From Azolla caroliniana (lineage: Eukaryota > Plantae > Polypodiophyta), in contig JBHGNT010000004.1 of assembly GCA_043228905.1 (NCBI GenBank), positions 12,338,001 through 12,402,000 of the forward strand: a DNA stretch of 64,000 nucleotides. Direction: 5' to 3'. The translations under genes and the position numbers were made by a program. Positions within the stretch are counted from its first letter, which is position 1; each line of letters starts with the position of its first letter. Shown piece by piece: positions 3,935 to 38,040 of this stretch. The notes under the pieces are model-generated. The model was given only the letters and a program-made list of their open reading frames with translations, did no database searches and was not told where the DNA came from.

Positions 3935-6417
3935 CTAAGCATTAAAGAGGGAGACCTCCCCCAATATGTGTTCGTGTACCTCTTTGGGGACCTTGTAGAC
4001 AGTGTTGTATCCCTTAACCTTGTGCTTTGCTTGAGTCATAGTGAACTTCATTGCGATAATGGCATCAACATAGATTATTGTGGTGGGTGCATCTTTTAAT
4101 AATGCATATGTGTTCCTGCATTGTGGCAACTTTGCATAGTAGTTGCCATACACGACAGACTCACCAACATTGAACATGTTGCCAAAGCCATCCCTCACGA
4201 CTTCTTCCAATATTGTATTTCCTTGCTTGCACACCACAATGTAGTAGTCTTCAAAATCTTCATTTTGAGGAGATTTGACCACCGCAAAATGTTCTCCAAC
4301 TTCCAATAATATTGCCAAGTCTTCACACTAGTTGTAGTAGACAATATTGTCCGAATGTTCGTTTTTTTATATCCACACATTGTTCTATCTCAAGCTTCTG
4401 TAGCTTCCATGGATCCACAATTGATATATTGGTGCATTCATCCCATGCTTCATCTAAACACAAGGAACAAAAACACGATAAACTGCGGAATAACAATTGA
4501 GTGTTGTCCTTGCGACTAAACCCTAAAACACAATGGGTCTTCCGCGTCCCTTTCACGGTTTTACAACCATACAATTTACTCCTATCCACCTCATTAGCAC
4601 AAACCTCAATAAACAATCCATTCTTACCATCATTCGACATCTTCCATGTGAGCCACTCCACAACATCATGTGCATTTTGTGACTTAGCACCTTTATTATC
4701 CAACCGCTCATTTGTAAGAACACGCTTTATCACAGGCCCCGCACCATCGTGCTCTCCCTTTCCATGTCCAGACCCAAAGTAGTTCCATTGCATCCTAATG
4801 TTTGTCAATGAGAAGTATCTAGGTGTTTTGCATGACAGTTAGCCAACAAACACAATTAGTGCATTACTGGAGCGTACAATTCTTAACATGACTTAAACCA
4901 TAATTATTATGCCTAATGCATGAGAGAGAGAGAGAGCAATCCTAAGTTATAAGTTGGTCTTAATGAAGAAAATTGGATAGTACTAGGTTATTAATTAGTA
5001 CTAATGCATGAGAGAGGACAGTCCTAAGTTATAAGTTGGTCTTAATGAACAAAGTTGGACAATACTAATGAACAAATTAGTACTAATGCATGAGAGATGC
5101 CAATCCTAAGTTATAAGCTGGTCTTAATGAACAAAGTTGGATAGTACCGAAGTCTAAAGTTATAAATTAGTACTAATGAACGAAAGAGGATAGTACTAAG
5201 TTATTCATTACTACTAATGCACAAGAGAGGACAGTGCTAAGATATAAATTAGTACTCATGCCAGCAGGATGACAGTTCTAAGTTATCAATTAGTACTTGT
5301 GCATGCGATATCTGAGTACTTAGTTGTAAACCATAGTCTGTACTTGTGCATGTGCACCAAAGAGGACACTACTATGGTGTAAAATAAGGATACATTACAA
5401 GGCACAAACCTTAATTAGTACTTGTGCACCTGGGAGGACAATACTAAGCTGTAAATTAAGTTTACTTAACACAATTATTACCATAATCAATACTAGTGAA
5501 TCTAGGAGGGGAGAACTAAATGACCAATTAGTTCAGATTCACATTTCAAGATAGTACTGATGCATGTAGTAGGAGATTACTAATTGTATTTTGTACAAAC
5601 ATTTATAAGTACTATGGAGTATTACCAAAATAGACTTCCATTTATAAGTACCAAACATATGGATTATTTCTGCACCTTGCAATCAAGTTGAAGGACCGGG
5701 CCGCCTTAAATTGCTAGGCAACACCATCAAACTAGACCTAATGGCGATTAAAGTTAACACACAAGGATAATAAATCTACGTTTTGAAGCTTAAAACAATG
5801 TTGAACAAATAGCGTATCATGCTTTTAATCATCTGAAATGTAGAATATTGATTTCTTATGTAACTCACATCTTCTCTCCAGTAGCAAATATGTACAAGTA
5901 TTGTACACCGGTCATTGTACCAATGCATGGACTGAACCTCATTTTGAACTTTAAACATATAGTTCTCTGCAAAGTCAATAACAGATACCATAACATCTGG
6001 TGGTAAGCTATTTATACATTCCTTGAACTGTGAATTTTGCCAATAAAGTTCTGTGGAATGAACTCCCCGAGTTGGTTCTTAAACTCTGAGACAAGGGTAG
6101 CACCACATGTCTCCTTTTTTTGTCACATACTCTAAATATTTCCATTTTACAATATGACAATTATCTACATCAAGCTTCTGTCTACAAAATAACGGTTGTG
6201 GGAAAACCTTACATGTTCTTAGAAGACATGTATGATTATGCCACTCAGATGATGGTTGTTGTTCACAAACAAAAGACCTCCATAACTCAGAAACTGATGC
6301 ATTAGTCATGTTTCGCGCATTACATCTATTATCACACCCATTTGGTCTACATACCTCACAAGTGCAAACACACCCATCCCCATGTATAACCTTAGAATGG
6401 TTGAGAAGCAAGCTCAA
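3935..6417 (-). pseudogene. Degenerate DDD-type DNA transposase (Sola2-like), with one intron, stops and frameshifts
   Basis: Cys-rich N-part (CVCTCEVC...WHNHTCLLRTC), VIDFAENY..QNEVQSMHW (first D), YISDD*KHDTLFVQHCF, RH*V*FDGVA*QFK (second D region, ~5690-5750), WNYFGSGHGKGEHDGAG (third D), C-terminal SCFCSLC..C. The Sola2 assignment comes from remembered motif similarity, not a search. Confidence 0.75.
4819..5675 (-). other. Spliceosomal intron in the transposase gene, filled with AGTACT-rich tandem repeats
   Basis: Donor GCAAG|GTGCAG at 5675 and acceptor CCTAG|ATAC at 4819. Splicing joins SFNLIA-R-YFSLTNIRMQWNYFGSGHGKG in frame. Confidence 0.75.
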
Positions 6418-11605: not shown

Positions 11606-12590
11606 GTAATGAGTTTTGTATGCGGAAGTTTCGAAACAACATAGTCCTCCTAGCCACAGTTAGGTAAAACATAGAGAAAACATAAATACAATAAGGAGGA
11701 GCGGGGGAGACACAGAGCAGAAGACAAAAAACTCATATTCAAAATAATATGCTCTGTGTACATACAAGTGTGCTCGGAGAGCACCTTTTATAGAAGCCAT
11801 GATAGCGGGCAGACACAAGTACTGTCAGTACTTGAATGCTCATAAAGAGCCTATGACACTAACTCCCAAAATACTTCCTAATATTAAAACTAGGAATAAA
11901 GGCTCGTAAAAGTTATTTGTGGAAGCGTAGACACAACCGGCTCAGGCAGACAACAACAAACAATACGCATGTTTAATGGAAAGCTTCAAATGCACAAAGA
12001 CTCTATGGGAGAGATAGAGAGAGCAGAACATAAACTCAATTTAAATAATAATAAACACTTTGTACATCGATTATGCTCAAAGAGCACTTTTATGCAAATC
12101 CTCAAAAGGACTGACACAAGTACCATCAATACCTTAATGTTGATAAATGAGCCCCTACATTAACTCCCATAAATATTCCTTCGCGGAATATCTTTCCAAA
12201 CGGCTTGCCAACTCCCACCGATCCAGCCATGTTGATCGGTCTCCGTCTGGCTCCCGACTTGTTCCGCCGATCTGGGCCTAATAGATCGGTCTAATCCGAT
12301 CCGGTTGTTGGCTTCTTCAGCCGATCCGCCCCAAGTTGAGCTTGCTCACTCAACACTCCCCCTTAAGCTCAACTTGAGGCTCTCCTTGAGGTTCTCCTAG
12401 CATCTCCACGCCTTGCTCATGCTTCTCTTCCAGTTCGATTCTGCATTCCTCGACCGCCCTGGTCCTTTGCTTTTTCGACCCTCCGGTTCCGCACATCTCG
12501 ACCCTTTCGATCGTCTTGTTTACTCGTAACACCCTAGCTAGCTCCCTTGCTTTCATGGTATTGGTGCTTGTCACGACCCAAGCTTCCAAG
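11606..12590 (-). mobile_element. Two adjacent Copia A-related LTRs plus the 3' end of the internal region
   Basis: PPT/LTR junction CCTCAAGTTGAGCTTAAGGGGGAG|TGTTG (LTR start 12355). Copia A LTR palindrome CAAGTACTG-N-CAGTACTTG at 11816-11834, with a degenerate copy at ~12117. Confidence 0.65.
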
Positions 12591-12594
12591 ACGA

Positions 12595-13925
12595 TGTTGA
12601 TTTGGAAGAAAAGAAGATAATTACAAACGAGAAGACACTTACAAGACAAGAAGACAAGAATTTCTATTGCCGGAAACCAAAATTACAAGGTTGCTGAATA
12701 CTGGTGTTGAACCGAAATGGTTCAACACTAAGCAGATCTTCCACTTATATAGTGTACGTAGGATTGTGCATGATCTCCATTTGGCATACATGTTGTGTGC
12801 CACTTGGCGTACATCCATGCATGCCATTTGGCAATCATCTATTGTGTCTTGTGCTCATAATACTTGAATAATAATAATATTAAAATATATTTGTTAATTA
12901 AAGTTAGCTGTGGTACTCGTTAGAGTGTGAGACCCTTGTCTATAGGTTACAATCAAATCTTCATATTGACATCATCCCCTCCTTTGACGATGACTTCCAT
13001 GAGTCGCAATGCATAAACTAGGTTTTGGTTTATGGGGATAATGACGATGAAACTCTTGTATAAGTTGAGAGGCATTAGTGACATTTACTACGGGTTTCCA
13101 TGTTTGATCCTCAGGCGTGTATCCAAGCCAATCTACCAAATAATATAACCTATTGCATATGACCTTGGAGTCCAAAATAGCTTCTACTTCATACTCTGGT
13201 CCTTCCGCAAGTTGAAGTGGAGGTGGTGGTGGAACAACCCAATTTGGGATAGAACTTGATGTCCATGGTTCTAACAGTGAAACATGAAACACTAGATGAA
13301 GAAGCATATGTGAAGGCAAGTCTAGACGAAATGCAACCTGGTTGACTTGATGAGAGATTACAAATCAACCTAGACATTGGAAATCCAATTTGTCACATGG
13401 CCTAGTAGTTTTCGCAGTATGGCGTATTAACCACACCCAATCACAATCTTTAAGCTTAGGGTCCTCAAGTGTAGAATCTAAGCGATGCTTATCAGCCACC
13501 TTCTTGTACTTAGCTTGAGCATGAAGCAAATTATTGGAAATGTTGGCTTGAAATTCTTGGAGTTGTTCTAAACGATCTTTGACAGTGGGATTGTTTGAGA
13601 CTTTTGGATATTCAAGCATCATCCACCGAGGATGATATCCAGTGTTTGCAAAGAATGGAGTGAATCCCCTAGAAGAATGAATTGAATTATTGTAAGCAAA
13701 TTCTGCCATCTATAAGAAATCCACCAAATCATCTTGTTGATAATTGATAAAGCAACGGAGATATTGTTCTAACGTTTCATTCGTGCGTTTTATTTGACCA
13801 TCGGTTTGAGGATGGTAGCTTGTAGATAGTTTACGAGAAATTCCAAGGATCTCAAGTAAGTGTGTCCAAAACTTCGCAATAAATTGTGGCCCACGATCAT
13901 TAATAATTTCATCTTGCACAGACAT
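12595..13925 (-). mobile_element. Chromoviral Gypsy (Tcn1-like) 3' fragment: integrase, chromodomain, PPT and 3' LTR
   Basis: [30 protein letters not shown] and chromodomain EYEVEAILDS..YLVDWLGY..EDQTW. PPT AAAGGAGGGGA then TGA then LTR TGTCA at 12971. Confidence 0.85.
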
Positions 13926-15034: not shown

Positions 15035-16085
15035 TGTTGAGAGACAAGCTCAACATTCGTGCGTAATATGATGTGTAAACCAGTGCATAGACTGGGTGCG
15101 TAAATTGGTATGCACAACCTGGCTGTATTGGTGCGTAAACCGAAAGGCCGTTAGAGAGATATTCCTCGTAAGGAATAAATTTGGGACTGAGTGTCAAGGC
15201 TCATTTATGAGCAGTCAAGTACTGTCAGTACTTGTGTCAGCCCGATTGTCAGGGCTTGTATATAAGGTGCTCAATGAGCATGAAGTATGTACAGATTAAG
15301 TATTATTTTGAATTGTTTTTCTGTGCTCTCTATCTGTCTCTCGCGCGTATTGTGTATATTCAAGCTCTCCATTAAACGTGCGTATTTTCTGTGTTCGGTT
15401 TTTAACTTGCTTCCGCATGCTATTCTTTTCATGGTATCAGAGTGCGAGGGTTGAGAACCTCTGCAACCAACATAGCTTGAAAGGAAAACCAACCAAGAAG
15501 AACAGGTTAAACCGATGGATAGAGGCATGGCTAGCTCGCTTCCGACGGAGAAGCTCGACAGAAACAACTACGCGTTTTGGTCCTACAAGATGCACCGGTA
15601 CCTGCTCGGGCACAGTTACTACAGCTTTGTCGACGGAGCAAATGACACAGCACCCGAATCGACACACAGAGATTTCCCGGCATGGGAACTGACGGCGAGT
15701 AAAGTACTGTACTACTTCGCGTCTTGTGTGGGTGAACATCTCCTAAGCTACATTCGGGATGCAAAAATGCCAAAGGATGCTTGGGGAAATCTGAAGAAGA
15801 TTTTCGATGCGAGCACCACAGCTAGGAAGCTTCAACTCCGACGGGAGCTGAGCAATTTACGACAACGCGACTTGTCGGTGGCTAATTACACCTCAAAGAT
15901 CAAAGAGATATGCGACTCCTTAGCCTCTATCAATGTGTATGTTGAGGAAGGCGAGGTGGTGCAAATCTATCTCGGGGGACTGGCGTCGAAGTTCGGAGCA
16001 TTCTGAACTGTTGTGTGTACATGGGAGAATATGCCGTCGTTTTTCGACTTACAGTCGATGCTCCTTATAGAGGAGAACCACGTGG

Positions 16086-16228
16086 TGTGGTGAAGTACGA
16101 AAGCTTCACATTAAAAGTCTACAATAAGATAAATACGTAACTAAAATAACATTTGATAATGTTTTATATATAAAGATAATATTAACAACACATATAATAA
16201 TATTATATCTATGTAAAGAAAAAAAATA

Positions 16229-16264
<36 letters not shown>

Positions 16265-19200
16265 TAAATATATTATATTACACGAACAAGAGAGGACTTG
16301 AACCAATAACCCCACCCTATGACTCTCAAATCTTACCATTTACTCTATACTAGTAATATACATAAAATAAAGCATACTTTATATTTACTTTATATTACAT
16401 AAAGGATTTGCTTCATGATATAAAAATAAAGTTGTATGTTGTATTCAATAGTATTTTGAGACTCAAACCCACAACCTCATACACCAAAGTCAACACACCT
16501 ACCATTAGGCTAGGCCCTTTCTCTTTAAGATTATATTTTCATGTTTATTGTTATTGCATATATTGTTTCATAAATAAAAGCTCAAATGAGCGAGATGTTT
16601 ATCATGCATCACATGTAATGCATGAACGTCAAATGGCGAGCATGCATCACATGCACTACATGCATGACTTGTACCCTCCAATGCATCATATGCATGGGGG
16701 CACCTATTTAAATGGTGAAAGAGAAGATCAAAGGGATATGTATAAGATATCAATCAAATTATGTATTACATAAGAGATACCATAAAAATAGAGAAAGAAG
16801 GGAAGAAGTTTAACATAAACGTGGAGCTCTAGCTTAGCGGTCGTGGTGGTCAACTCTCAACAAGAGGGAGGCGGTTCGAGCCTTATCTTCATCAAAATAT
16901 TGAAGTGAAGATTGTAGTGGTCTACGATCAAGAAAGAGAAGAGCAATTACATTGCAAGACAAAGTTCGGAGGTTCAACGATGTGCACAATTATTTTGTAA
17001 CTCTTTCATGAAAATGATTATAAATTTCATACACTTTCTCATATATTATTTTATATCTTATCTTGTCTTATCTTATATTCCTTAAAAATTCTATTTTGTC
17101 ATATCTTATTGATCTCTATTCACTCTATCTCTACTCTTTCGTCTCTTCCATCCATAATCCCTGTGATTCCTTCCTCACTTTCACGTTATCCTTTGTGTGT
17201 GCAACGCTACGCTTCTAGGCGAGCCACATCACGACACAATTTGGTGAACCCGACGTGAAACGGGGAAGTAGAAGAGACATCAAAAGTAAACATCAATATC
17301 AATATGGCAAGTACAAGTACAATGGATCCGGTAAGGTTATTTATTGAAAAATTGAATCAAGATCAATTATTTTATGCCTTACGAGAAGTGCGAGAGAAGA
17401 TTGGTGTGTTTGATGGCACAAATAGCTCAAAGTATGTCAATATATATTATGATGAAATGGAAATGTTTGGTGTGAATGATGTCAATATGATAGCAAACTT
17501 TTATAAATTAGTAGAAATGGAATTAAGAGATAGAATTCGTGAAATACAAGCATTGCATAGTTTGGATTGGAATGCATTCAAAGAAGCACTTGTGTCTGAA
17601 TATTCTCGTGAAGATTTCTCTCGAGTTACTATGCGTTCATTTCATGAATGGATCTTAAAAGAAGATAAAGCCATAAGCACTAAGGTCTGCCTTATTGCTC
17701 TCAAAATTTCTTTCTTCTGGATCTTAAAAAAGAGTTTGATAGGATGTATGGACACTTAAAGCCAGAAGAAAGAAATTCTTTGTCTTGGCAAAAGGTTGCT
17801 TTATTTTTGCAGGCAATTGACAAGAGATATAGAAAAGAATTGGAATTTATGCTTGAAGTACCAAATACCGAGGATGGTATAACTGCAGATTGGAATGAGG
17901 TAACAAATGCTTGTAATAAATTTATGAAAAGAATGCAAAGGAATGGTGTAATGCTTCAAATACCACATGTGGGAATCACAAATCGGCTTGAGCAAAACAT
18001 CGAAGTTCAAAGACTTGGTCGAGAACCATCACACGAAATGGTCCATCAACCACGAGAAATGACGGGAACTAAGAGTGAGTTTTTGCTTGATGATTTAGTT
18101 CAAAGTATGAAAGATCTAACAATTAAAGTGGCAAAGCTTGAGAATGGTCAGACTTTGAGGTCAAGGGAAGCATTTCGACCTCGATGCATGTGGTGTGATA
18201 GTCTCGACCATCGTCTACGTGATTGTGAAGAATATAAAGACATGGAAAATCGGGACTTGGTCTATTGGAAAAATGGTAACATTTACTTAACTGAAACTAG
18301 AACTCCGCTTACAAAGAACTTTGGTGATGGTGGTGTTAAGGTTAAATTTGAAGAAGCTGAAGCAAAGAAGGCTTCCGCAATGTATTACTCGGCAACGGCA
18401 GGAATGCGCCTCGATGACATGCCATCCCGATCATCATTCTGGGAGAAGGTTGTAAGTACTGCACAAAAGCAAAAGATGAAGATGGAAGACCTTCGTGTTG
18501 CCGGAGATTCTGTAAGGAAAAACACTGGATGGGATGTTCCAGTAGATGCTATGACGGTCTATGCTCAGATGGCAGAGCACCAAGAGCATGAGGTGATAGT
18601 GGAAGAAAAAAGGAAAAGGTTGGATGATGAGATTGGGTCAACAAAAAAGCATGAGACAAGAGACAGCAAAAGAAAAGAGATGGACGCAAAGGTCAAAAAA
18701 GGTAAATATGGTCCTTCATTCAAATTAATGTCTGATATTGAAAAGGATACAGATTTAAAGAAAGTTTTAGAAACAAGAATACTAGACAGTCGAGTAGAAT
18801 TTACACTAAGAGAAGTGTTAGGTATTGCAAAAAAGGAATTTCATGATGAAATAATTGATATTGTGCGAAGAAAGAAGCAAGTAAATGAGCAGGTTAAAGA
18901 GACAAATCCGAAGGTGGCATATGAAGTGGTGAGCAACGATTCAAACAATATCGTTGTTGAATCTCAACATGCATCAACCTCAATGATAAATTCAACAGAT
19001 GTAAGAAGCCATTACTCTTGCAAATGTTGGGCAAGAGCCACTACTGAGCATCATGTGAAGATTGGAAATGTTCCAGACCCCGTCCGTGATGGCACTTATT
19101 TATCATGGTTCTGAAATAAATATAATGAGTGCTGATTTTTACAGGAAAGGTAGATGGCCAATTGATACTCAACATGGTTGGCGAGTAAAAGCTGCCACAT

Positions 19201-22200
19201 CAGTCACGGAAGATTTATTTGGTGCATGCCCAAATGTAAAGGTTATTATTGGTGATATAGAGGTAGATCAACATTTCTTTGTGTAGGAAGAATCTACCTA
19301 TCCAATAATCCTGGGGCAACCATACATTACATCGGTACGGATGGAGACCAAAGTCCTCGACAATGGTTCTGCCTATGCGAAAATACATAGCCAAGATGGA
19401 CGACGAACTGTACAATTTATGACAGTTCGCCCAAATCATGAGAGGATCAAGCAAGAGCTTCGTGATCATTCAATACCAAAAGATTGTGATGATTTTGATA
19501 ATCAGGTTTTTGACTAGGACTATTGCGAGTGAGGGTTGCAATAGTCCCATTATTAAAAGACCCTCATATAGGGCATTACAACATATAAATAAGTCATTTC
19601 ATGTTTCTGAAAGTGGTGCTATATGTGTGACTAGGATGTATGAATGCAAGAGGAACTTGAAAAAGAATGCTAATCTGTTTCAGCAGGCATTGAAGGATAA
19701 TGGAGTACTTGAAATGGAAGAGCAGATTGAAAGTGTTATGGAAGAAATTTCTTTTGCAAATACTTTAGAAGAGTTAGAAATGTATTTGAAAGAAGATGAT
19801 GAGAATGTTAGAAAGATACATTTAAACTCAATTGATATGTATTATGAGATTGATAGGTATAATTGTAAATATGAAGAAGTAGAAAGTTTATGTAATACAA
19901 AATACAAAACAATAGATAAAAAGGTCAAACCTGTTGCAGTACCATTACCTATTGGTAGTGAAGAGAAGATGGAGGCAGCAGCAACCGAGCCTATGCTTCG
20001 ACCAATAGAGAAGATCGGACATCACTTCACATCGGAGACAATAAATAACTTGAAAATTGGAAGGGGTGAATTTCTTCTGCAATCAGAGATCGCGACTTTC
20101 AAAGAAATGATCTTTAGGCATGGGAAAGCGTTCGCATTCAAAGCTGAGGAGATTGGTTATGTAAATCCAAAGGTGGTGACGCCAATTGGTAATATTTACT
20201 ATCCCTCATATTCCTTGGAATTTTAAACCTATTGCAATACCGAGAGCTCGATTACCTCAATTGTTGGAGCTGCTGAAGGATAAAGTCAAGATGAAGATTT
20301 TAGAGCCTTCAAATGCACCATACTCCAGTAGATGGTTCACAGTTCCAAAGAAAGATGGTTCTCTAAGATTCATTCAAGATCTACAACCAATCAACAAAGT
20401 CACAATCCAAAATTCGGGAATTGGACCGATCGTTGATGAATTTGCGGAAGCGTTTGCTGGAAGAGCGATTTACTCTATGGGAGACCTATATTCAGCATAC
20501 GACCAATTTCAACTAGCAATTGATAGTCGCAACATCACAACAATGAAAACACCAATTGGGTTGGTTCGAATGTGTACTCTAACTCAAGGTGCGACGAATT
20601 CGGTTGCTCATATGATGAATGCAATGAACAAAGTTCTACATGAATACATCCCAAAGGTAACTATGCCATTTTTAGATGATATTCCTATTAAGGGATGCTT
20701 AGAAAGAGAGAAAGATGAGACTATGGTTGGAAATGGTTGCAGAAAGTTTGTGATGGATCACATTAATGACTGTGAAAGTATTTTAAATAAGCTTGAGCAG
20801 GTACATTTGACACTATCAGGAACAAAGTCTTGCTTTGGGCAAAACGAAGTTCTAATAGTTAGTCATATGTGTGGGTGGTATGGGAGGAAGCCTTCACCGA
20901 TCAAAATTAACGCAATACAAAATATGAAGGAAGTTTGCGACTTGGTAATAGAGGTGAGAAGATTTTTGGGTGCATGTGCGTTTTATCATATTTGGTTACC
21001 ACACCACACTTTGCACATGTCTCAGATCCTCTCTACCAACTTTTAAGAAAAGGAAAGAAGTTTATTTGGACTGATGAACATACACAAGTTGTTCAACAGC
21101 TAAAAGAAGCATTACTGAAAGCACTAGTTCTTCGTCAACTAGACTACAAAGGTGAAAGACCAATTATAGTAACAGTTGATACTAGCCCAATCGGGATCGG
21201 TTGGGTTATCAACCAAGAAGATGAAGAACAACATCAATATGCTATCAGATTTGGAGCAAAGATATTAAATGAAAGACAAAGAAACTATGCACAAGTTAAA
21301 CGAGAATTGTGGGTTTTGGTTACTGCATTAAAAACAGATAGAGATTACTTGATCGGAGCTGCAAATGTAGTGGTTGAAACAGATTATTTTCCACTCATTG
21401 GAATGATAGCAAGTTGCACGACACCAGATATTGCAATGCTTCGGTGGATTGCATACATCAGAACCATGAACCCAGAATTATGGCATATAAAGGGAAAAGA
21501 CAACCCAGTTGCAGATATGCTGTCAAGGGCAAGGTTCATAAATGAAAAGGTGATGCAAACTGAAGATAAGAACTGGGCAACTACAAGCCATCAATTTGCT
21601 CATCCAGAATCTATTACGCCTCATGATGAGTTTAATGTAAGTACAATGTTCAAAGACAAAGAGTATGAAGGTCAATGGTTAGAAATAGGAAATTTTCTAA
21701 AGACTCAAGAAGCCAACCCATCATGGTCGAAGAAACAATTAAATGAATTTCGAAGACGAGCATTCAAGTTTTTTTTACATGAAGGGCATTTATGGAGGCG
21801 TCCAAAAAGGCCAACCGAAAATCCTCTTTGAGTCATTTGTAAGGATGACATTAAGAGAAAATTAATTAATGAATTCCATGATAGTTTGTCGGCAGGACAT
21901 AGAGGCATATGGGCGACATTTATGAAGTTGAAAGAAAAGTATTGGTGGCCACATATGTATAAAGATGTAACGAAATTTGTGGAAACTTGTGAGGTTTGCC
22001 AAAGGTATTCAACTATCTGGTATTGAGATGAGCTAAAACCAACGTATTCATCGTCAATGCATTATAAATGGATGGTCGATCTAGTGACAATGCCACTTGG
22101 GGAAGGTCAAATGCGATATTTAGTACTAGCAAGAGAAGACCTTACAAACCAAGTAGAAGGAAGACCACTACGACAAAAAACAACTAGAGCTGTATGTAAA

Positions 22201-24155
22201 TTTTTGTTAGAAGATGTAATATGTCGTTACGGGTGTGTTGGTAAAATAATTGCAGATAGAGGAGAACTCGACTCTGATGAAGCTAGAGAATTCTTCAGCC
22301 GAATAGGGGTCAAATTATCACGTACAACTACGTATAATCCAGAAGCAAATGGACAGATTGAAAGAGGACATAGCCCAATAGTTAAGGTGATCGTGAAAAG
22401 CTGTAAAGGTAAAATAAGAGATTGGCCACGCATGCTACCTTATGCACTATGGGCGGATCGAACAACTCATAGTTCAGTAACAGGATACATGCCAGCTGAA
22501 TTTATACTTGGCCAAAAGCCCATCATGCCAGTAGAAGAATCAATTCTGTCATGGATATCTATTCCATGGAGAGAAGAGGTGAGCAGAGAAGAATTACTTG
22601 CTTTGCAAATTCAAGAATTAGAGCGTCGACCTGAAGATATAGAAATAGCAGCCCAACGATTGAAGGAGGCTCGACTAAAGAATAAAATTCATTTTGATAA
22701 AACACATAGAATTTGACATAAGAAAATAGAAGAAGGAGATTGGGTGCTCGTGTATGATAGCAGTTTAGATAATCAACATAGCACTGTCCGCAAGTTCGCT
22801 GAAAGATGGTTTGGGCCTTATATAGTAAGAAAAGTATATGATAACTTTACCTATAAGCTTAGTGAATTGGATGGGACACTAATCCTAAACGTGGTAGCTG
22901 GAAAGAGGATAAAAGTATTTAAGAAAATGTTTGAGCTTGAACCTCCTCCAATAGATCAACATGAAGATGAAAGATAGTGGCACATGCCGGAGGATGTGCA
23001 GGTCTAGAGGGGGTGAATGTCGTGAAGTACGAAAGCTTCACATTAAAAGTCTACAATAAGATAAATACGTAACTAAAATAACATTTGATAATGTTTTATA
23101 TATAAAGATAATATTAATAACACATATGATAATATTATATATATATGTAAAGAAAAATAATATATATATATATAGATAAATATATTATATTACACGAACA
23201 AGAGAGGACTTGAACCAATAACCCCACCCTATGACTCTCAAATCTTACCATTTACTCTATACTAGTAATATACATAAAATAAAGCATACTTTATATTTAC
23301 TTTATATTACATAAAGGATTTGCTTCATGATATAAAAATAAAGTTGTATGTTGTATTCAATAGTATTTTAAGACTCAAACCCACAACCTCATACACCAAA
23401 GTCAACACACCTACCATTAGGCTAGGCCCTTTCTCTTTAAGTAAATTTTCATGTTTATTGTTATTGCATATATTGTTTCATACATAAAAGCTCAAATGAG
23501 CGAGATGTTTATCATGCATCACATGTAATGCATGAACGCCAAATGGCGATCATGCATCACATGCATTTCATGCACTACATGCATGACTTGTACCCTCCAA
23601 TGCATCATATGCATGGGGGCACCTATTTAAATGGTGAAAGAGAATATCAAAGGGATATGTATGAGATATCAATCAAATTATGTATTACATAAGAGATACC
23701 ATAAAAATAGAGAAAGAAGGGAAGAAGTTTAACATAAACGTGGAGCTCTAGCTTGGCGGTCGTGGTGGTCAACTCTCAACAAGAGGGAGGTGGTTCGAGA
23801 CTTATCTTCATCAAAATATTGAAGTGAAGATTGTAGTGGTCTACGATCAAGAAAGAGAAGAGCAATTACATTGCAAGACAAAGTTCGGAGGTTCAACGAC
23901 GTGCACAATCATTTTGTAACTCTTTCATGAAAATGATTATAAATTTCATACACTTTCTCATATATTATTTTATATCTTATCTTCTCTTATCTTATATTCC
24001 TTAAAAATCCTATTTTGTCATATCTTATTGATCTCTATTCACTCTATCTCTACTCTTTCGTCTCTTCCATCCATAATCCTTGTGATTCCTTCCTCACTTT
24101 CACGTTATCCTTTGTGTGCGCAACGCTATGCTTCTAGGCGAGCCACGTCACGAGA
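16086..24155 (+). mobile_element. Gypsy B: tRNA-Trp-primed non-chromovirus (Phygy-like), full length with frameshifts and stops
   Basis: LTRs 16086-17236 and 23018-24155 (~20 substitutions, about 2%). 4-bp TSD GTGG/GCGG. PPT AGAGGGGG. Gag with CMWCDSLDH..C, protease ALI(Y)HGSEIN, RT DLYSAYDQ / QGATNS / FLDD, RNase H VDTS, integrase with GPY; no chromodomain. Confidence 0.93.
17242..17259 (+). promoter_or_regulatory. Primer-binding site complementary to the 3' end of tRNA-Trp
   Basis: TGGTGAACCCGACGTGAA is the reverse complement of the plant cytosolic tRNA-Trp 3' end (TTCACGTCGGGTTCA-CCA, recalled). Identical PBS at 56131-56148. Confidence 0.85.
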
Positions 24156-27100
24156 GCGGGTGCGTTGACAAGCACGCATGCCGACAACAAGATGTACACG
24201 GAGGGAGATAGGCGTCGTGGTTGTGGCGGATGAGGCGAGTTAGTGCACAATGGAGGCAACTTACGAGATCAAGGAAGAAGGCACCGAAGTGATGCTGACA
24301 GCAATTCCGAACCTTCCGAAAACGGGGGGAGTCGAGGCGATGAGAACCGGCATGGGAAATCCGTTGCGGAATGTTGGTACTGTGGCAAGAAAGGCCACAG
24401 GGAGAGCGAGTGCTGGAAGAAGCGTGCCGATTCGGAGAGGACCGGACCCAGATCAGGTTCCGGACAGACTAACAAAGGAAACCGGTAGCGATCGCACTAC
24501 TCCGAAGGATCTGAAAAAGGGTCAGTCTTCGTGACGAGACACAAAGCAAACATGATGAAGAAGATCACCCGCACTCGGATGAGGTGTGGTACGTCAACTC
24601 CGGCGCGTCAAACAACATGACGTGCCACAAGGAGTGGTTCTCATACCTGGAAAAACCGATGCAACCGGAGACAACACTCCGCATCCGATCGCAAATGTGG
24701 GTGAAGTTCCCTTGAGCCATGTCGGGCAGAAAGGGAAACTTATGAATGTGTTACACATCTCGACAATCACGAAGAATCTAGTTGCAGATATACGCCGGAG
24801 CAAAACGGCGTGGCCGAAAGGAAAAATCGGTCAATTGTGGAAGTGGCACGAGCAATGCTGGAAGAAAAGAGCTTGCCCAAGCTCTATTGGGCCGAGGCGG
24901 TACGAACTGCGGTATACATCAAGAACCGGATCGGAGAAAAAGTGTCTGCGCATGAGCTATACATCGGAACGAAGCCGAATCTGTGACACTAAAGAGTTTT
25001 GGGTAGCATTGCGTATGTGCATGTACCGAAGGAGAAACAGAGGAAGTTGGATGCGAAAGTCGAGAAGTGTATCTTGGTCGGCTATTCGGATGAGCAGAAG
25101 GGTTATAAGTGTTATAACCCTCGCACCAAACAAGCGCGTGTGAGCCGCGACGTTGTGTTTGACAAGTCCGCATCCTGGTACTTGTCTCCGACTCCGGAAC
25201 TCACCTCTAATCCGAGTTCTGACGATGAGGTCAGCGAGGCCGAGATGCCTCCGGATCGCCTGAAATTGGGACCCGCGAAGAGAGTCTAATTTCGTTTCGG
25301 TGAAGCGGACCGGATGGACAACTGGGTCGGTTTGACCAGTCCGATGACAAGCCGACGAGTAGTGGAGACTCAGCCGTGCATTCCCCGCGCAGGAAGCCGA
25401 GGAGACAGCTTACGCGCAAGGAAAAAGGGGAGAAGAAAGTGTCGGATTACGCCACAGATAGGAACGAGTCTGATCAACGCGAGTCCGACTCTGAGGGAAG
25501 TGATGACAGGTCTTCGAGAGCGAAGTCCGCGTCGGCGAAGAAAGCGTCAACTTCGGCTAATGAGCAATTACGCTGATCTACCCGCTAGAAGAACCATGTT
25601 GTGCGGTTCGGTTACAATGAGTACATGGTGCATCATTATGCGTACATGATGCGTGTAGCGGAAGTGCGTGAACTGGAGAGCTACACAAAAGCGGCGAAGG
25701 ACGCAAATTGGCATGGCGCAATGGAGGAAGGAATGCGCGCGTTGGCGGAGAATGAAACTTGGGACCTGGTTGACGCACCGAAAGGTGTGAAGCCGATCAG
25801 ATGTAGGTGGGTGTACAAGGTGAAGTACCACACCGATGGCTCGGTCAACCAATACAAGGCCCGGTTAGTAGCGAAAGGTTACGCACAGAAACACGACATC
25901 GACTACGATGAGATGTTCGCGCCGGTCGCGAAGATGACGACCGTCCGTGTTTTGCTCGCGGTAGCTGCGGCAAAGGGGTAGCCCTTACATCAGATGGATG
26001 TAAAGAATGCGTTCCTACAAGGTGAACTTGAGGAACAGGTGTACATAGTACAGCCTCCCGGATTTCACTCCGGAATGAATACTTCGGTGGTGTGCCGATT
26101 GAAGAAGTCCCCTTACAGACTAAAGCAAGCCTTGCGTGCTTGGAACGTGAAGATCACGCAACGATTGTGTCGGATGGGCTTTGCGACGTCAAAATCGGAC
26201 TCCTCACTGTTCATCCGGAAAGGTCGACTTGGGCCGGTTAGTATCTTACTTTATGTTGATGACTTTGTCATCACCGGCGCCGTCCTTGGTGAAATTGACC
26301 ATGTAAAGTTCCAGCTCGCGGCATCATTTGACATGAAGGATTTGGGGGACCTTCATTACTTCCTCGGGATCGAAGTGATTCGCACCCCCGAAGGCATACT
26401 GATCAGCCAACGACATTACGTGCTGAGTATGCTCTTCAAATTCGGAATGACCGACTGTAAGTCCGTCTCGACTCCTCTGGATAGAACCGTCAAGCTTCGC
26501 CCCGATTCTGGAAAGGTATGCGACCCAACGAGGTTCCGACAGATAGTCGGAAGCCTTATATACTTGACCATCACCCGACCAAATCTCAGCTACCCAATCG
26601 GGGTGATTAGTTAGTTCATGGCGCGACCGACCGAGGAGCACCTTCAGTGCGCACAACGCGTACTCCAGTACGTCAATGGCACTAAGGACCGGGGGCTACT
26701 ATATCAAACCGATATTGCCACGCAGTTGGTCGGTTACACCGATGTTGATTGGGCCAGAAATGCCGGCGATCGCCAATCCACGTCCGGTTTCGTGTTCTCT
26801 CTTGGGAGTGTCGCGATCGCATGGACTAGCAAGAAGCAGCCGACAGTTGCGTTGTCGAGCAGCGAAGCCGAGTATAGAGGAGCGGTTGTCGTGACATGTG
26901 AAGCCATATGGTTGAAGCAACTACTTAAGGATCTGCAGGTAGAGGTATCCGATCGAACGACAATCTACTACGACAACCTCAGAGCATCCAGCTAGCTAAG
27001 AACCCCGTTTTCCATGCCGGGACTAAGCACATTGAGGTGCACTATCATTTGGTCCATGAGCATGTCCTCTCCGGTGAAGTTGGACTTCAGTATGTTCCGA

Positions 27101-32309: not shown

Positions 32310-35300
32310 CTACTTCAAAAGATTGCACTCTTGCAATATAAAGTGAGGAAATTGTGCCTTAAGCGAATGCTCGCGTTCCCATGTGGCATCATCAATAGGT
32401 TTATCCATCCATTTGATCTTGAATAGCCGAATCTCTTTAGAACGTAAACGTTTAGTACGAGAATCAAGAATTCGTTCAGGAACATGAGGTTTGTAAGAAA
32501 AATCCTCTAATGTTACAAGATCTTGGATTGTGATGGTGTTATCACCAGAGCCTAAAAATGGTTTTAGACGACTGACGTGAAAAACAGGATGAATACCAAC
32601 GTTACGAGGTAAGGCAAGGTGATAAGCAGATGACCCAACTCGCTTAAGGATTTCAAATGGGCCACAATATCGTGGGGCTAACTTAGCGCACTTGCCCGTA
32701 GATAATGACGTAGAATCAGTCGGGACACGCAAAAAAACTTTTTGACCAATAGTAAATGCACGAGGACGTCTATCCTGATCAGCATAAAATCGAGCACGAT
32801 CTTGAGTTGTCTTGACATTTTCTTTGGCAATATGCAACATTTGGTTCATGCCTTGCAAAAAATTGCGTGTACTGTCTAATGTATCACGATGAATCGTGAC
32901 ATCAACTGGGGCACGTGGCTGAAAACCATACATCAACATAAAAGGACTATATCCAGTGGATGTATGTTTAGAGCTATTATAGGCAAATTCTAAGATAGGA
33001 AGGTATTGCTCCCACTTAGAAGGGGTTTTTGCTACATAAGCTCGAAGCATGTCCTCAATAATTTGATTAACTCGTTCAGTTTGTCCATCAGACTGAGGAT
33101 GATCTACGGAACTCATGCTCAACGTAGTTTCTAGTTTCTTAAAGACCTGAGTCCAAAAGTCACTAGTAAACTTGGAATCTCGATCACTAACAATATCCAT
33201 CGGTAATCCATAAAAACGAAATAACTCATCAACAAATTGATAAGCCAACTGTTGAGCGGTTACCGTGGTTTTTGTAGGAATAAATCTAGCTAATTTTGTT
33301 AGCCTGTCAACGACAACCCATATGGCATCATGACCCCTCTGTGTACGAGGTAAACTAACAATAAAATCCATCGAGATACTTTCCCATTTATTGTTGGGAA
33401 TATCTAAGGGATGTAAAAGACCAGCAGCTTTAAGTCGTTCCGACTTATTAATCTGACATTGTAAGCATTGAGTTACGTATTTATGCACGTCAGAGCGCAT
33501 CTTAGGCCAGAAAAAAGTACACGAGATGAGAACGAGTGTGCGTTGTATTCCAGGATGACCAGCAGATGGTGCATCATGACATTCATGAAAAAATTTCTGT
33601 TTAACATTTGGTAAATCTGGAACACAGACCTTTCCACTACGGTAGAGCAAACCGTTTGTAATGTGAAAGGTCGCCTTCGAGGGTAGGGTGCTAGTATCGG
33701 CATCTAAACCAGATTCGGCTTTCGTCCAGTATTTTGAGAAATAACTGTCATCAAGGTATTTCCCTCGAAGGTGATCTAAAAGATCAGATTTTATTTCCGT
33801 GAAGCTAAGCATGTTAACTTCTTTAATGCGACTAAGAGCATCAGCAACGGTGTTCATAGAACCCTTGCGATATCGTATGGAAAAATCAAAATCTTGCATA
33901 AGGTCAGCCCAACGGCCTTTACGACCAACAAGATCGGGCTGGTCACAAAAATACTTTAATGATTGATGGTCTGTTGTAACCACAAATTTATTTCCATAGA
34001 GATAGTGCCTCCACGTTTTAAGTGCGTGTATCACCGCAAACAACTCTTTCTCTTGAACCGAATACCGAGATTGAGCAGCATCAAGCTTCTTACTTTCAAA
34101 AGCAATAGGGTGACCACCTTGATAAAGAACGGCACCAATAGCATAATCACTAGCATCGATTTCAATTGAGAAAGGCTTAGAAGGGTCTGGTAATAGAAGA
34201 GTGGGAGCCTGACACACATGCTCCTTGAGTGTCTCAAATGATTTGTCAAGTTGTTCATTCCATGAAATTGGTTTGACAGACTTACGTGGATGACCTTTTA
34301 AAAGGTCAGTTAATGGCGTAGTCAATTTGGAATAGTTACGAATTGATTTTCGTAAAAATCCAACAAACCCTAAGAATGATCTAAGTTCACGAATATTACG
34401 AGGAATGGGCCAAAGTTTAACCTTTTCAATACGAGAAGGTTCAATTTCAACGCCATTTTCTGTAATTAAATGACCTAGGTACACAATAGATTTTTGGAAG
34501 AAGTCACATTTTGAATGTTTTGCATAGAAAGAGTTGTCACGCAACTTTCGCAAAACAAATCGAACATGTTGAACATGATCTTGCAAGGTACGGCTATATA
34601 TCAAAATATCATCCAAGAAGACGACAACAAAATCACCGAGTTGATCTCGGAAAACATCATTCATCGCTTGTTGGAATGTGGCTGGAGCATTAGTCAACCC
34701 AAATGGCATGACTAAAAACTCATAATGGCCATAGCGCGTACGCAAAGCGGTTTTAGGAATATCATCCTCGGCGATGCGAATCTGATGATAACCAGTTCGT
34801 AAGTCAATTTTCGTAAAATATCGAGCCCCGTGCAAACGATCAATCAAATCATTGGCACGAGGTAATGGATATGCATTCTTAATTGTCATTTTATTCAAAC
34901 GGCGATAATTGATACACATTCGCCACGAACCTTCCTTCTTCTTGACTAATAGGACTGGCGCACCCCAAGGTGATTTACTATACCTAATGTGGCCCATACT
35001 CAAGTATTCCTTAAGTTGTTTAGCGATCTCATCCTCTTCTAATCGACTAAGTCGGTAAGGTGGAATGCTCACAGGAGCAGCCCCAGGGATGAGTTCAATT
35101 TGATGGTCCACATTACGTTTAGGTGGTAAAGTAAGCGGTAATTCAGTAGGAAACACATCTTGAAAATCCTCTAAAATAGAGTCGAGTAATCGTTGCTCAA
35201 AATGTGGTAATTGTGTGGCGTCAATATTAAAATAATAAAATTGAACCGCAGGATCAATTACACACGAATAAATTAATGAACTAGAATACTCACTTAAAGA

Positions 35301-36713
35301 TTTAGAAGACACAAGTGAATGAGAAGGAAGTTTGGAACATTGAATAAAATGTTTACAATTATTAAGTTCAAATGTGATTGAGTGATTAACCCAATCAATG
35401 GACAAAGAAGGGTTTTTATTAAAAAACCAAGGATATCCTAAAATGACATCTGCGGATTGTAATTTCATAACATGAAAGTCAAGCTTCTCCAAATAAGTAT
35501 CTATTTGAATTGGCAGTTGACAAACAATGCCACTGATGTATTGAACGTTTCCATTTGCCATGTGAACTTGATAGATATGATCACTTGCGTTTATGTGGAG
35601 CTCCATTTGTTGCACAAAGTGATCATTAAGAAAATTGTGAGAACTACCGGAATCAAACAAGAAATGTGCTTGTGTTCCATTGATATATCCGACTGCTCGG
35701 AGTAAATCATTAGGTCCAAGTAAATGTGAAGGAAAAGTGCATTCACATAAACTTAAGTGATTGGTATGAACTTCAACAATATCAAAAGACTCACCTGTGT
35801 GACTCGTAGATTTGTCTTGAGGAGGGGTGTTCATTGACTTCCTCTCAAGACGACGACAGGTATCCTTTGTGTGGCCCCGCTTCTTGCAATATGCACAGAA
35901 GAGGTTCGGTTTCTTTGAGTCGCGGTCAAGAGTGTCACTGGATTGCTTACGTTTCCCAATGAACTTGACATTCGGAGTTTTGGCGAACTCAGGTTTATTG
36001 TGGTCTTTCTTGGAAGTCCTATGGTATCGCAGCACAATGTTGACGGCTTCCTCAAAAGTTGTGGGGTCCTTGTCATGGACAATCCAATGATAATCCCCAT
36101 TGGGAATACCATTCAAAAAACAAGCGACAAACCATTTCTCACCCGTAAGTCCCGATTTTTGGATCTGGGTCCGTGCGTGATGCACATAATCCTCGAGAGA
36201 GGTAAATGGCTTACTAGACAATGTGAGCAAGTGTTGCGCTTGTTCGGTTTGAGAAGGTGGCTGCAAGAATTGTTTCTTAAAAACATCAACGAAACCTTCC
36301 CAAGTTGTGGGTAAGTTTTTTGCGGTCCTTAGGCCACGCCACCAAGCAGCAGCTCGGCCACCTAACTCACGACCGACATAACCAATTTTTACTGCATCGG
36401 GCTTGGGATAAAGCTCAAAGTGAGACTCCCAACGACCAAGCCAAGTGCTAATGGCCTCCTCGGTTCTTTCTTTCTTATCTCCCTTGAAAGGCGTGACTAG
36501 GAAGGAAGGTTCACCTTCTTTCTTGGACTCAATAGTTAATTCTTGGAATTTCTTTTCCAATGCCATATTGGCCTGTCTCATTTCGGCCAATTGATTCAAG
36601 GTAGTAGTGAGCAATTGCTCAATAGTGATCTCAGCTTGTGTGCGAGATGCGGATTGGGGTTGAGAGGTCTCATTTGGAGAGATCGTTCCAACTGCGTTGA
36701 AAACTTGTTCCAT
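32310..36713 (-). CDS. Gag-Pol polyprotein, 1467 aa (Gag-CCHC, protease, RT, RNase H, integrase, chromodomain)
   Basis: Uninterrupted ORF: CAYCKKRGHTKDTC, FDSGSSHNF, DLRTGYHQ, FLDD, IDASD, HHCC, ISMDF, GPF, PERILDSR..IKW..DATWE. Confidence 0.96.
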   Translation of the reverse strand: MEQVFNAVGTISPNETSQPQSASRTQAEITIEQLLTTTLNQLAEMRQANMALEKKFQELTIESKKEGEPSFLVTPFKGDKKERTEEAISTWLGRWESHFELYPKPDAVKIGYVGRELGGRAAAWWRGLRTAKNLPTTWEGFVDVFKKQFLQPPSQTEQAQHLLTLSSKPFTSLEDYVHHARTQIQKSGLTGEKWFVACFLNGIPNGDYHWIVHDKDPTTFEEAVNIVLRYHRTSKKDHNKPEFAKTPNVKFIGKRKQSSDTLDRDSKKPNLFCAYCKKRGHTKDTCRRLERKSMNTPPQDKSTSHTGESFDIVEVHTNHLSLCECTFPSHLLGPNDLLRAVGYINGTQAHFLFDSGSSHNFLNDHFVQQMELHINASDHIYQVHMANGNVQYISGIVCQLPIQIDTYLEKLDFHVMKLQSADVILGYPWFFNKNPSLSIDWVNHSITFELNNCKHFIQCSKLPSHSLVSSKSLSEYSSSLIYSCVIDPAVQFYYFNIDATQLPHFEQRLLDSILEDFQDVFPTELPLTLPPKRNVDHQIELIPGAAPVSIPPYRLSRLEEDEIAKQLKEYLSMGHIRYSKSPWGAPVLLVKKKEGSWRMCINYRRLNKMTIKNAYPLPRANDLIDRLHGARYFTKIDLRTGYHQIRIAEDDIPKTALRTRYGHYEFLVMPFGLTNAPATFQQAMNDVFRDQLGDFVVVFLDDILIYSRTLQDHVQHVRFVLRKLRDNSFYAKHSKCDFFQKSIVYLGHLITENGVEIEPSRIEKVKLWPIPRNIRELRSFLGFVGFLRKSIRNYSKLTTPLTDLLKGHPRKSVKPISWNEQLDKSFETLKEHVCQAPTLLLPDPSKPFSIEIDASDYAIGAVLYQGGHPIAFESKKLDAAQSRYSVQEKELFAVIHALKTWRHYLYGNKFVVTTDHQSLKYFCDQPDLVGRKGRWADLMQDFDFSIRYRKGSMNTVADALSRIKEVNMLSFTEIKSDLLDHLRGKYLDDSYFSKYWTKAESGLDADTSTLPSKATFHITNGLLYRSGKVCVPDLPNVKQKFFHECHDAPSAGHPGIQRTLVLISCTFFWPKMRSDVHKYVTQCLQCQINKSERLKAAGLLHPLDIPNNKWESISMDFIVSLPRTQRGHDAIWVVVDRLTKLARFIPTKTTVTAQQLAYQFVDELFRFYGLPMDIVSDRDSKFTSDFWTQVFKKLETTLSMSSVDHPQSDGQTERVNQIIEDMLRAYVAKTPSKWEQYLPILEFAYNSSKHTSTGYSPFMLMYGFQPRAPVDVTIHRDTLDSTRNFLQGMNQMLHIAKENVKTTQDRARFYADQDRRPRAFTIGQKVFLRVPTDSTSLSTGKCAKLAPRYCGPFEILKRVGSSAYHLALPRNVGIHPVFHVSRLKPFLGSGDNTITIQDLVTLEDFSYKPHVPERILDSRTKRLRSKEIRLFKIKWMDKPIDDATWEREHSLKAQFPHFILQECNLLK

Positions 36714-37694
36714 GATGCACGCTGTGGGTATGCAATAAAATAAGGAGGTTCAGAAAATACACAAGAAAAATGAATGCTTGAAATTTTGATTGAAGGAACT
36801 TTATCCAAGAAAGTATCTCATGTCTTTACCCCTCTAGACATATGAGATGTGATTCGAGATCCGATAACTATGGTAACACTATGGTGTTTTAAAAACCATG
36901 GGGGAAAACATAGCTAAGATGTATTTCTCGGATCTCTATCTTGAGTAATCATGGCGGCTCCCTGAGGCTCAACCATGGTTCTTACATCAATGAAATTTCC
37001 TAGATAGCCTTATATTAATGCCAACCCATCATGTATTATATGGTCGAGAAAGTGTATTACGTGAAAAAACAAGTGCACTCACAAGTAATATTCTAGTCTT
37101 GCGAGCAATAAGCAAACGTGATGATAAAATGATAAAATAAGGCACTACTCATAAGAGTTAAGTAGTGACGAAAATAAGGGTAAAAAAAAAAGAACCCATG
37201 TGTTACCTACGAAAAAAACAATGTCACAAATAAATGGGAAGTGCAAGGTATGCACATATACATCCCAATATGATTGTTATAACTTGCACAATTGTGACAT
37301 AAGCCACAAATTGATACAAGTGATGACGGTGTTGTGCGCAAAGATGTAATACTCAAATCCATGAGTAAAACATCAATAAGGGAACTCATATGGTTTTACT
37401 CGTTTTCTAAGGCTTGATGATAAGAGTTAAACCTAGATGACCCGTTGAAAAAAAATCGTTCAACAAGCCACTCCATACGAAAAAAATAGTCTACACGTAA
37501 AGGTTACATTAAAATAAACGATGTAAATACTTTATACACGAAAAGGAAGTGGAAAAAGGAGAGTTAATTGTGGGCGGGTAAATAATAATTACTAGAAAAT
37601 CATATAAGTGAAACAATACTTATGAAATTAAAATTTAATTAGAATAATCAACAATTAGGTGTATGGAATCAAACATGCCCTAAGATACGAAACC

Positions 37695-38040
37695 CTAGGG
37701 TAGTTGACATGCACCTCCTCAAGACCACCACATATCCCTAGAATCGGCCAAGTAATGGCTAATTAAAGAGGAACGTGGCATAGGTAAGTGACATATACCT
37801 CGTCAAGGCCACATCATCCCTTAGAATCGGCCAATTGATGGCTAATTAAAAAGGAAAGTGGCATATGTAAGCTACATATACCTTGTCAAGGCCACAACAT
37901 CCCATAGAATCGGCCAATTGATGGCTTAATAGAGAGTAGAGTGGCATAGGTAGGCAACATACACCTCGTCAAGGCCACATCATCCCTTAGAATCGGCCAA
38001 GTGATGGCTCAATAGAGAGGAAGAGTGGTATACTCAACAT
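37695..38040. repeat. 83-bp tandem repeat, about 4 copies, in the 5' leader of Gypsy C
   Basis: CCTCGTCAAGGCCACATCATCCCTTAGAATCGGCCAA..GATGGCT at ~37714, 37798, 37881 and 37964. Confidence 0.9.

Follow-up and report, generated by a model that had tools for sequence, protein, structure and literature searches.

Antisense tRNA-type A/B-box modules in the long terminal repeats of Gypsy retrotransposons from an Azolla caroliniana contig as candidate TFIIIC sites

Why would the long terminal repeat (LTR) of a full-length retrotransposon carry several copies of the tRNA-type promoter boxes A and B? The question is raised by a stretch of 64,000 nucleotides from the Azolla caroliniana assembly GCA_043228905.1 (contig JBHGNT010000004.1, positions 12,338,001 to 12,402,000, forward strand), the whole of which we call the window and in whose numbering all positions are given. 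The window holds an 8,070-bp Ty3/Gypsy element, here called element B, which we file in the Phygy lineage for reasons given below and which has a 5' LTR at 16086-17236 and a 3' LTR at 23018-24155 that are 95% identical to one another. It had been proposed from the letters alone that three A/B-box modules of the kind that binds the RNA polymerase III (Pol III) factor TFIIIC bracket the RNA polymerase II (Pol II) promoter of this LTR. Our analysis of the window and of a metagenome sample points to a different picture, in which the antisense modules of the U3 region would be maintained as predicted TFIIIC sites with a barrier-like role, a reading to which we assign a probability of about 45%.

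The six motifs of the original prediction were found in their places, with A boxes starting at 16347 and 16512 on the minus strand and at 16830 on the plus strand and B boxes at 16304, 16469 and 16873. The distance from A-box start to B-box start is 43 nt in all three modules, as had been noted, and all three are found again in the 3' LTR (A boxes at 23259 and 23424, minus strand, and 23749, plus strand). Module M1 (16295-16347, minus strand) joins an A box at 16347-16336 to a canonical B box at 16304-16295, and M2 (16460-16512, minus strand) joins an A box at 16512-16502 to a B box at 16469-16460. The third module, M3 (16830-16882, plus strand), is a sense pair that lies downstream of a TATA-like box, CTATTTAAA (16704-16712, plus strand), the putative Pol II promoter; TATAAA stands at the homologous place in the metagenome loci L045, L049 and L073. 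By use of a generic A/B scan (general consensus, two mismatches at most, spacing 38-52 nt) we found three pairs in the 1151-bp LTR. Among 1000 dinucleotide-shuffled versions of it, which had 0.012 pairs on average, 12 reached one pair and none reached two.

The sample was obtained by scanning metagenome contigs with a pattern composed of the LTR end and the primer site, which is blind to the modules. This gave 123 loci of an estimated 230, most of which share a contig-name series and are thus probably non-independent samples. Within the 260 kb made up of the window and these loci, 28 box pairs had a spacing of 43-44 nt, and each of the remaining spacings between 20 and 89 nt was represented by 0-5 pairs. 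Both members of LTR pairs, a locus present in duplicate and a genuine tRNA are counted among the 28.

The modules do not have the cloverleaf or the covariance-model match of a tRNA gene. ARAGORN found no tRNA in the window, no Rfam tRNA match at E<=10 was obtained over 16000-17400, and the modules of 10 loci gave Rfam matches at chance level only, compared with 59 bits for the control tRNA in L030. The latter, at L030:1151-1223, is a genuine tRNA gene with T at position 56 that lies about 550 nt from a Phygy LTR end. Acceptor stems are indeed poor, with a mean of 2.8 of 7 pairs over 20 antisense modules, which is near random. Signs of a short interspersed element (SINE) were also looked for. 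Neither the window nor the 123 loci yielded a free copy and no clear target-site duplication was seen by eye; a (TA)n tract behind M1 could be a tail. The lack of a free-standing SINE copy outside LTRs in the 260 kb is weak evidence, because the loci were chosen for LTRs.

How widespread are the modules, and which of them recur? Among 35 delimited Phygy LTRs (32 from the loci and three from the window, with loci too short to contain the LTR start excluded) 10 carry one or two antisense U3 modules. Of the others, L009 has a decayed module, L029 has weak sense modules only and 23 are without a module. In all 10 LTRs the antisense modules are upstream of the TATA and any sense modules are downstream, and L049 has the layout of the window, two antisense modules plus one sense module. 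Upon grouping of the LTRs into families by U3 homology outside the boxes, and judging only those long enough, the module was found to be kept in all members of F1 (window, L045, L049, L056 and L073), in all members of F2 (L001, L061, L074 and L077, the last twice) and in two of the three members of F3. A tandem duplicate of the module unit is present in the F1 LTRs L045 and L049. There are eight U3 module types (M1, M2, F2, F3, L053 and those at window positions 40165, 61276 and 62031), and all eight are antisense and lie about 430 nt or less from the LTR start (P=0.008 for the orientation, if the types are independent). Their core spacers mostly match one another at only 2-12 of 21 positions.

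The LTRs that carry modules share a composition. All 10 are AT-rich (GC 0.31-0.43) and have at least three CATGCA words, and no module was found in the 16 LTRs having a GC of 0.49 or more, a comparison in which the independent units are families rather than LTRs. Modules stand ahead of gag genes in the window, L056 and L061 and also occur in the non-autonomous derivatives L001, L074 and L077. Of these, L074 is a gag-less Phygy derivative arranged as a tandem unit some 2.36 kb in length, and L001 and L077, together with L053, have long open frames of 460-640 aa that were unmatched by the gag profile.

The proposed bracketing of the Pol II promoter is weakly supported. The antisense U3 modules recur, whereas the sense module after the TATA is present in F1 (window, L045, L049, L056 and L073) and weakly in L029, and was not seen in F2, in F3 or in the chromovirus-like LTRs described below. 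It is also the least conserved module, the invariant columns being 2 of 11 in its A box and 2 of 10 in its B box, and lacks A14 at the family level. The recurrent unit is the antisense U3 module.

The same A/B scan found five further modules in the window, at 40165, 55347, 59432, 61276 and 62031, each near the start of another LTR and antisense to that LTR, as well as one loose pair of 46-nt spacing inside copia coding sequence. Two of the five are in Phygy-type LTRs. The module at 55296-55347 (minus strand, 42-nt spacing) lies in the U3 of a second Phygy-type LTR (55186-56126) that has the same primer site and a gag about 28% identical, and that at 59380-59432 (minus strand) lies in a solo LTR (59267-59987) flanked by ACGT and ACAT. 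The other three are in LTRs that have a TGTCATGA-type terminus at their start or end and are not alike by BLASTN. The module at 40165-40218 (plus strand) is antisense to a minus-strand LTR that starts with TGTCATGA at 40234, and its B box is 16 nt from the LTR end. The module at 61276-61329 (plus strand) is antisense to a minus-strand LTR fragment that starts at 61392 and abuts a chromovirus-like gag-pol, and the module at 61979-62031 (minus strand) belongs to a chromovirus-like element having a DUF4939/Ty3_capsid gag, in whose 5' LTR (about 61960-62406) it is found. Two of the three TGTCATGA-type LTRs adjoin chromovirus-like genes. The reverse transcriptase beside 61276 is 53% identical to that of the chromodomain-bearing element of the window and 25% identical to that of element B. 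The LTR with the 40165 module is presumably chromovirus-like also, as judged from its ends. A search with the chromovirus-like reverse transcriptase gave two distant loci (54-58%), in which no module match was better than E=0.5.

Given this set of modules we asked if the boxes are more conserved than the sequence between them. The conservation set contained 15 modules, the rows of which were anchored on the boxes (which favours the key positions somewhat) and the cells of which are not independent. At the nine invariant positions, A14, G18, G19, G53, T54, T55, C56, A58 and C61, 6 of 135 cells departed from the family majority versus 83 of 480 spacer cells (Fisher P=8e-5). The remaining 129 of the 135 key cells are canonical, such that the boxes are intact in the manner of tRNA gene (tDNA)/TFIIIC barriers, with T56 in the M2 of element B. 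When the families are compared with one another, their majority letters coincide at 9 of 9 key positions versus 11-17 of 32 spacer positions. None of the 20 antisense modules departs from a box spacing of 42-44 nt, and the flanks carry indels. When whole boxes were compared with flanks (five sense modules included), 40 of 84 versus 138 of 568 columns were invariant (P=2e-5). Thus, in the test of box conservation that had been proposed, the invariant positions exceed both spacer and flanks; whole boxes do not exceed the spacer (see below). At positions 56 and 57, C56-A57 is present in 12 of 15 B boxes, T56-G57 in three and CpG in none, a bias in favour of the decay product that is compatible with the consensus. 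We take the conservation of the key positions as support for constraint on the boxes rather than proof of it.

If the boxes are under constraint, the conserved entity might be either an RNA product or a DNA site. No compensatory change was seen in 13 predicted pairs, and the RNA fold z-scores of eight of nine modules were ordinary (+0.65 to -0.91). The first run of four T residues lies 0-167 nt behind the B box or is absent. F1 is the exception, having five T residues about 34 nt behind the B box and inside the LTR (window, L045, L049 and L073). No conserved stem-loop ending at a terminator, of the foamy-virus type, was found in the modules. Conserved boxes having a free spacer and no conserved cloverleaf, fold or terminator distance are best accommodated by a DNA-level site rather than an RNA product.

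The most straightforward explanation would then be that tRNA-type A/B pairs became fixed at the outer U3 edge in several Gypsy LTR families and were kept as DNA sites. In Pol III transcription TFIIIC binds the boxes and places TFIIIB. At the U3 edge the boxes would thus recruit TFIIIC, an outward-facing Pol III complex would be assembled there, and TFIIIB would occupy the AT-rich DNA that separates the module from the U3 motif cluster. In the 5' LTR such a site would be located between the flanking chromatin and the Pol II promoter and is predicted to act as a barrier against silencing. Insulators supplied by tRNA genes are known from animals, and in yeast TFIIIB and TFIIIC limit the spreading of Sir proteins (PMC9540200). 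The modules would have originated from a tRNA or the head of a tRNA-derived SINE and may have spread by repeated capture or by U3 exchange between families, presumably with selection on the boxes. As most sampled Phygy LTRs do without the site, it would be accessory. A wider proposal is that Gypsy elements of at least two deep lineages repeatedly recruited tRNA boxes as portable outward-facing barriers that keep the LTR promoter open in heterochromatin. We consider this proposal rather doubtful.

What the gag genes say of this history is limited. On a tree of 35 gag rows the five module-bearing rows require four changes, and their grouping in one clade against the 15 module-less rows was rejected (p-AU 7e-7), with the caveat that metagenome contigs may join an LTR and a gag from different copies. 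Since the module-bearing rows do not form a single clade, modules must have been gained or lost repeatedly or U3 regions exchanged, and the tree cannot tell which. As to the ancestor, an origin through read-through of the primer tRNA was considered; the modules do not seem to resemble tRNA-Trp and presumably do not derive from it. One F1 module (L049:1275-1347, minus strand) has, by eye, a perfect 5-bp stem and a 7-nt loop at the anticodon position (TGG), and this stem together with the D-loop suggests what we take to be a tRNA-Pro-like ancestor.

A number of observations weigh against maintenance of the modules as barrier sites. When whole boxes are compared with the spacer, the difference in invariant columns (40 of 84 versus 50 of 128) is not significant (P=0.26), and the non-invariant box positions vary like spacer (31 of 180). 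Conservation extends to some tRNA-like letters outside the boxes, TA after the A box and AGG ahead of the B box, as would be expected from simple descent from a tRNA-like ancestor. Variants in the run contigs (40 of 235 sites listed in one set, sparse in the other) do not separate boxes from spacer, with two box sites among 20 variable sites in 251 bp. On the gag tree the module-bearing rows are no more clustered than shuffled labels, and, as noted above, 23 of the 35 delimited Phygy LTRs are without a module. Within the window no module was found in the intact chromovirus LTR pair, in the chromovirus 3' LTR at about 12570-12971 or in the copia LTRs. The plant review in which barriers are discussed cites yeast and animal cases only and, in that discussion, no plant tDNA barrier (PMC9540200).

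Element B itself adds to these difficulties. T replaces C56 in its M2 B box (position 16465), a subfamily state; C56 is retained in 65% and 32% of the depth of two runs and in 81-88% of that of two more distant runs. As T56 is present in both LTRs, element B would have transposed with its M2 B box already degraded. The invariant A14 of M3 is private to the 5' LTR, position 16836 being G in the 3' LTR and in essentially all family depth of four runs, and is thus missing at the family level. The canonical M1 beside the degraded M2 could be compensation. Window positions 16395-16430 resemble the 5' start of the L073-type LTR, and the LTR of element B looks like an L073-type LTR having an extra 5' segment that brought M1. 

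Several of these points would be expected if the modules were functionless relics, the heads of tRNA-derived SINEs or tRNA pseudogenes that landed in LTRs, with an apparent conservation that stems from descent and detection. Insertion of a SINE into an LTR has been proposed as the origin of the Helenus elements (Kojima 2024, PMC10886601). The lack of a significant difference between whole boxes and spacer, the 17 of 32 majority letters shared by the F2 and F3 spacers, the lack of modules in most LTR families, the potential tail behind M1 and the degraded state of M2 and M3 in the subfamily of element B all agree with relics. However, relics do not readily account for an antisense position at the outer edge in eight of eight U3 types, for identity at all nine key positions between families having diverged spacers, for a spacing that stays at 42-44 nt in 20 antisense modules despite indels in the flanks or for the tandem duplicate of the unit in L045 and L049. 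The lack of free copies outside LTRs argues in the same direction, within the limit stated above, and we regard relics as unlikely. Alternatively, the modules may be small Pol III genes. Their antisense RNA (about 100-130 nt in F1) would pair with the U3 of the genomic RNA, of which the U3 of the 3' LTR is a part, and tune silencing or replication. The F1 modules offer some encouragement for such a gene. The minus-strand T5 run at 16422-16426, a candidate Pol III terminator about 33-34 nt behind the M2 B box, is found at the same place in L045, L049 and L073, and the block around it is a depth peak and the best-retained part in diverged runs. For M1 the first T5 on the minus strand is at 16232-16228, past the (TA)n tract. 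Foamy-virus LTRs hold Pol III cassettes that depend on A and B boxes (PMC3993851). The lack of a conserved fold or covariation, the divergence of the spacers between families and the variable terminator distance speak against a conserved RNA, and in the chromovirus-like LTRs, in which only 16-20 nt separate the B box from the LTR end, the RNA would enter flanking DNA. We therefore think a role of antisense RNA quite unlikely.

Still less probable, and in our view very unlikely, are two further proposals, that the sense module drives synthesis of genomic RNA by Pol III in the style of Cassandra or Helenus, or that the boxes are landing pads for retroelements that target Pol III sites. The sense module after the TATA in F1 (and weakly in L029) and the non-autonomous derivatives in module families (L001, L074 and L077) are in keeping with Pol III genomic RNA. 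However, element B is 8 kb in length and has its first run of four T residues 110 nt behind the M3 B box, and the sense module, the least conserved of the modules, is lacking in most families that carry modules. As for landing pads, the aligned module LTRs continue upstream of the modules without an inserted element.

If the barrier reading is true, these LTRs would carry a transposon-borne insulator against host silencing, which would be the first plant barrier of the tDNA type and a source of many genomic TFIIIC sites. It would be a case of cis-acting resistance of a retrotransposon to silencing, and would extend the capture of Pol III promoters beyond non-coding miniature elements to full-length ones, in which they would do a different job. 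The LTRs offer natural pairs with and without a module inside related families, and if Physcomitrium Phygy LTRs carry the same module, the barrier question would be directly testable by gene targeting. Even if the barrier role is false, these LTRs will seed false annotations of tRNA pseudogenes and SINEs.

Other features of the LTRs and of the window deserve mention. The U3 of element B has a block rich in CATGCA/TGCATG (16603-16697, plus strand) that is common to F1 and that we assume to be RY-like; it may in part be a product of CpG decay. Phygy LTRs have CATGCA clusters where the TGTCATGA-type LTRs have GAA/TTC clusters, the latter directly behind the antisense modules (40060-40110, 61180-61230 and 62090-62175) and presumably akin to heat-shock elements. 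The chromovirus 3' LTR at 12570-12971 (minus strand), which is just preceded by a chromodomain and a purine tract, shares with the F1 Phygy LTRs a 26-nt U3 word around GCCAAATGG (92%, E 5e-6). In F1 the word is found at window positions 16640-16660 and in L045, L049 and L073. It resembles what we assume to be an E2F site and hints at U3 exchange between lineages or at a common factor site. A very decayed candidate module at the chromovirus LTR start near 12971 was not detected by the module profile and was not counted. The window also contains two young intact elements without modules, a chromodomain-bearing Gypsy (32310-36749, minus strand, LTRs 99.6% identical) and a copia (42258-46406, plus strand, LTRs 99.9% identical), and tandem arrays at 4905-5327 (periods of 41/82 nt) and 37699-38032 (83 nt), the latter inside the intact Gypsy element and outside its long reading frame. 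Within their last 35-80 nt the Phygy LTRs (e.g., L013, L018 and L050) have a conserved word of U5, some 55 nt ahead of the primer site, which is B-box-like (GGTTCRAGA) in 21 of 106 LTR ends and has a GTCC variant in 40 more. This word may be a replication or primer-activation signal, not a promoter. Run X21, which we guess to be RNA, gave a single contig of a relative that extends into flanking DNA and speaks neither for nor against expression.

The assignment of element B rests on its overall structure. Its 5' LTR (plus strand, 1151 bp, 31% GC) has TG...CA ends, and the element is flanked by the target-site copies GTGG (16082-16085) and GCGG (24156-24159), a 4-bp duplication of NCGN type in which the copies differ by one C-to-T change. 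It was inserted into a copia gag, the host frame (15476-16003) of which matches Retrotran_gag_2. The 17-nt primer-binding site (17242-17258, plus strand) is common to at least 123 metagenome loci and is, we presume, of the tRNA-Trp type. It is followed on the plus strand by a gag-pol in several frameshifted pieces (17259-22980; DUF4100, reverse transcriptase, RNase H and integrase) and a polypurine tract (23006-23017), and then by the plus-strand 3' LTR. The Pfam order is reverse transcriptase, RNase H, integrase, and inspection by eye of the stretch that follows the integrase showed no chromodomain. The protein relatives that have names come from liverworts and a fern (40-64% identity), and in viral contigs neither the integrase nor the primer-site pattern had a match. 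Phygy is a non-chromovirus Ty3/gypsy clade for which a 4-bp NCGN duplication, tRNA-Trp as the dominant primer and lengths of 7,656-9,968 bp have been reported (Neumann et al. 2019, PMC6317226). Because the duplication, length and presumed primer type match these features, as does the lack of a chromodomain, we file element B there. The description of the clade consulted here names no Pol III module in the LTRs (PMC6317226), of which element B has three.

How do these modules compare with known systems? The tDNA barriers of yeast and animals are fixed chromosomal sites, unlike the retrotransposon-borne modules described here; the two are alike in having an A/B site between silent chromatin and a promoter (PMC9540200). 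Simian foamy virus likewise has several A/B-type Pol III units in the LTR of an autonomous Pol II element, but its cassettes are expressed stem-loop pri-miRNAs having terminators (PMC3993851), whereas the modules lack a conserved hairpin. Cassandra, a terminal-repeat retrotransposon in miniature (TRIM), also has a Pol III promoter in a plant LTR, but one of the 5S rRNA type (A, IE and C boxes) that drives its own RNA from the 5' to the 3' LTR of a non-autonomous element (PMC10886601), unlike element B. Helenus TRIMs and TRIMp3 come nearer in having tRNA-derived LTR sequence that is conserved around boxes A and B without a functional cloverleaf, and in a patchy distribution with a probably repeated origin, and "not a few" Repbase LTRs are said there to hold tRNA-like sequence (PMC10886601). 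Helenus elements are non-coding, 311-1263 bp in length and known in plants from Selaginella only, and their genomic RNA has been proposed to be a Pol III transcript; the study was restricted to elements under about 1 kb and expected that autonomous partners would rely on Pol II and have LTRs without sequence of this kind (PMC10886601). Element B is not a short non-coding TRIM: it is 8 kb with gag-pol and a Pol II TATA, has up to three modules per LTR and has an antisense, outward module as the recurrent unit, in a layout common to two Gypsy lineages. Nor would its LTR have a Helenus-type promoter of genomic RNA, the recurrent modules being antisense and the sense module being followed after 110 nt by a run of four T residues. 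In the main text of the Helenus paper the words antisense, opposite and moss are absent (PMC10886601), and our literature search, the scope of which did not extend to Repbase entries, subscription papers and the Helenus supplements, turned up no paper in which A/B boxes are described for moss Gypsy LTRs. The remark that such boxes seemed undescribed must therefore be narrowed, since tRNA-derived LTR boxes are published for Helenus TRIMs, and it holds, in the literature found, for full-length plant Gypsy elements and the antisense layout. The closest known systems are thus the miniature Helenus and Cassandra elements, and what is new here, relative to that literature, is the full-length Gypsy host and the antisense, outward arrangement of the module.

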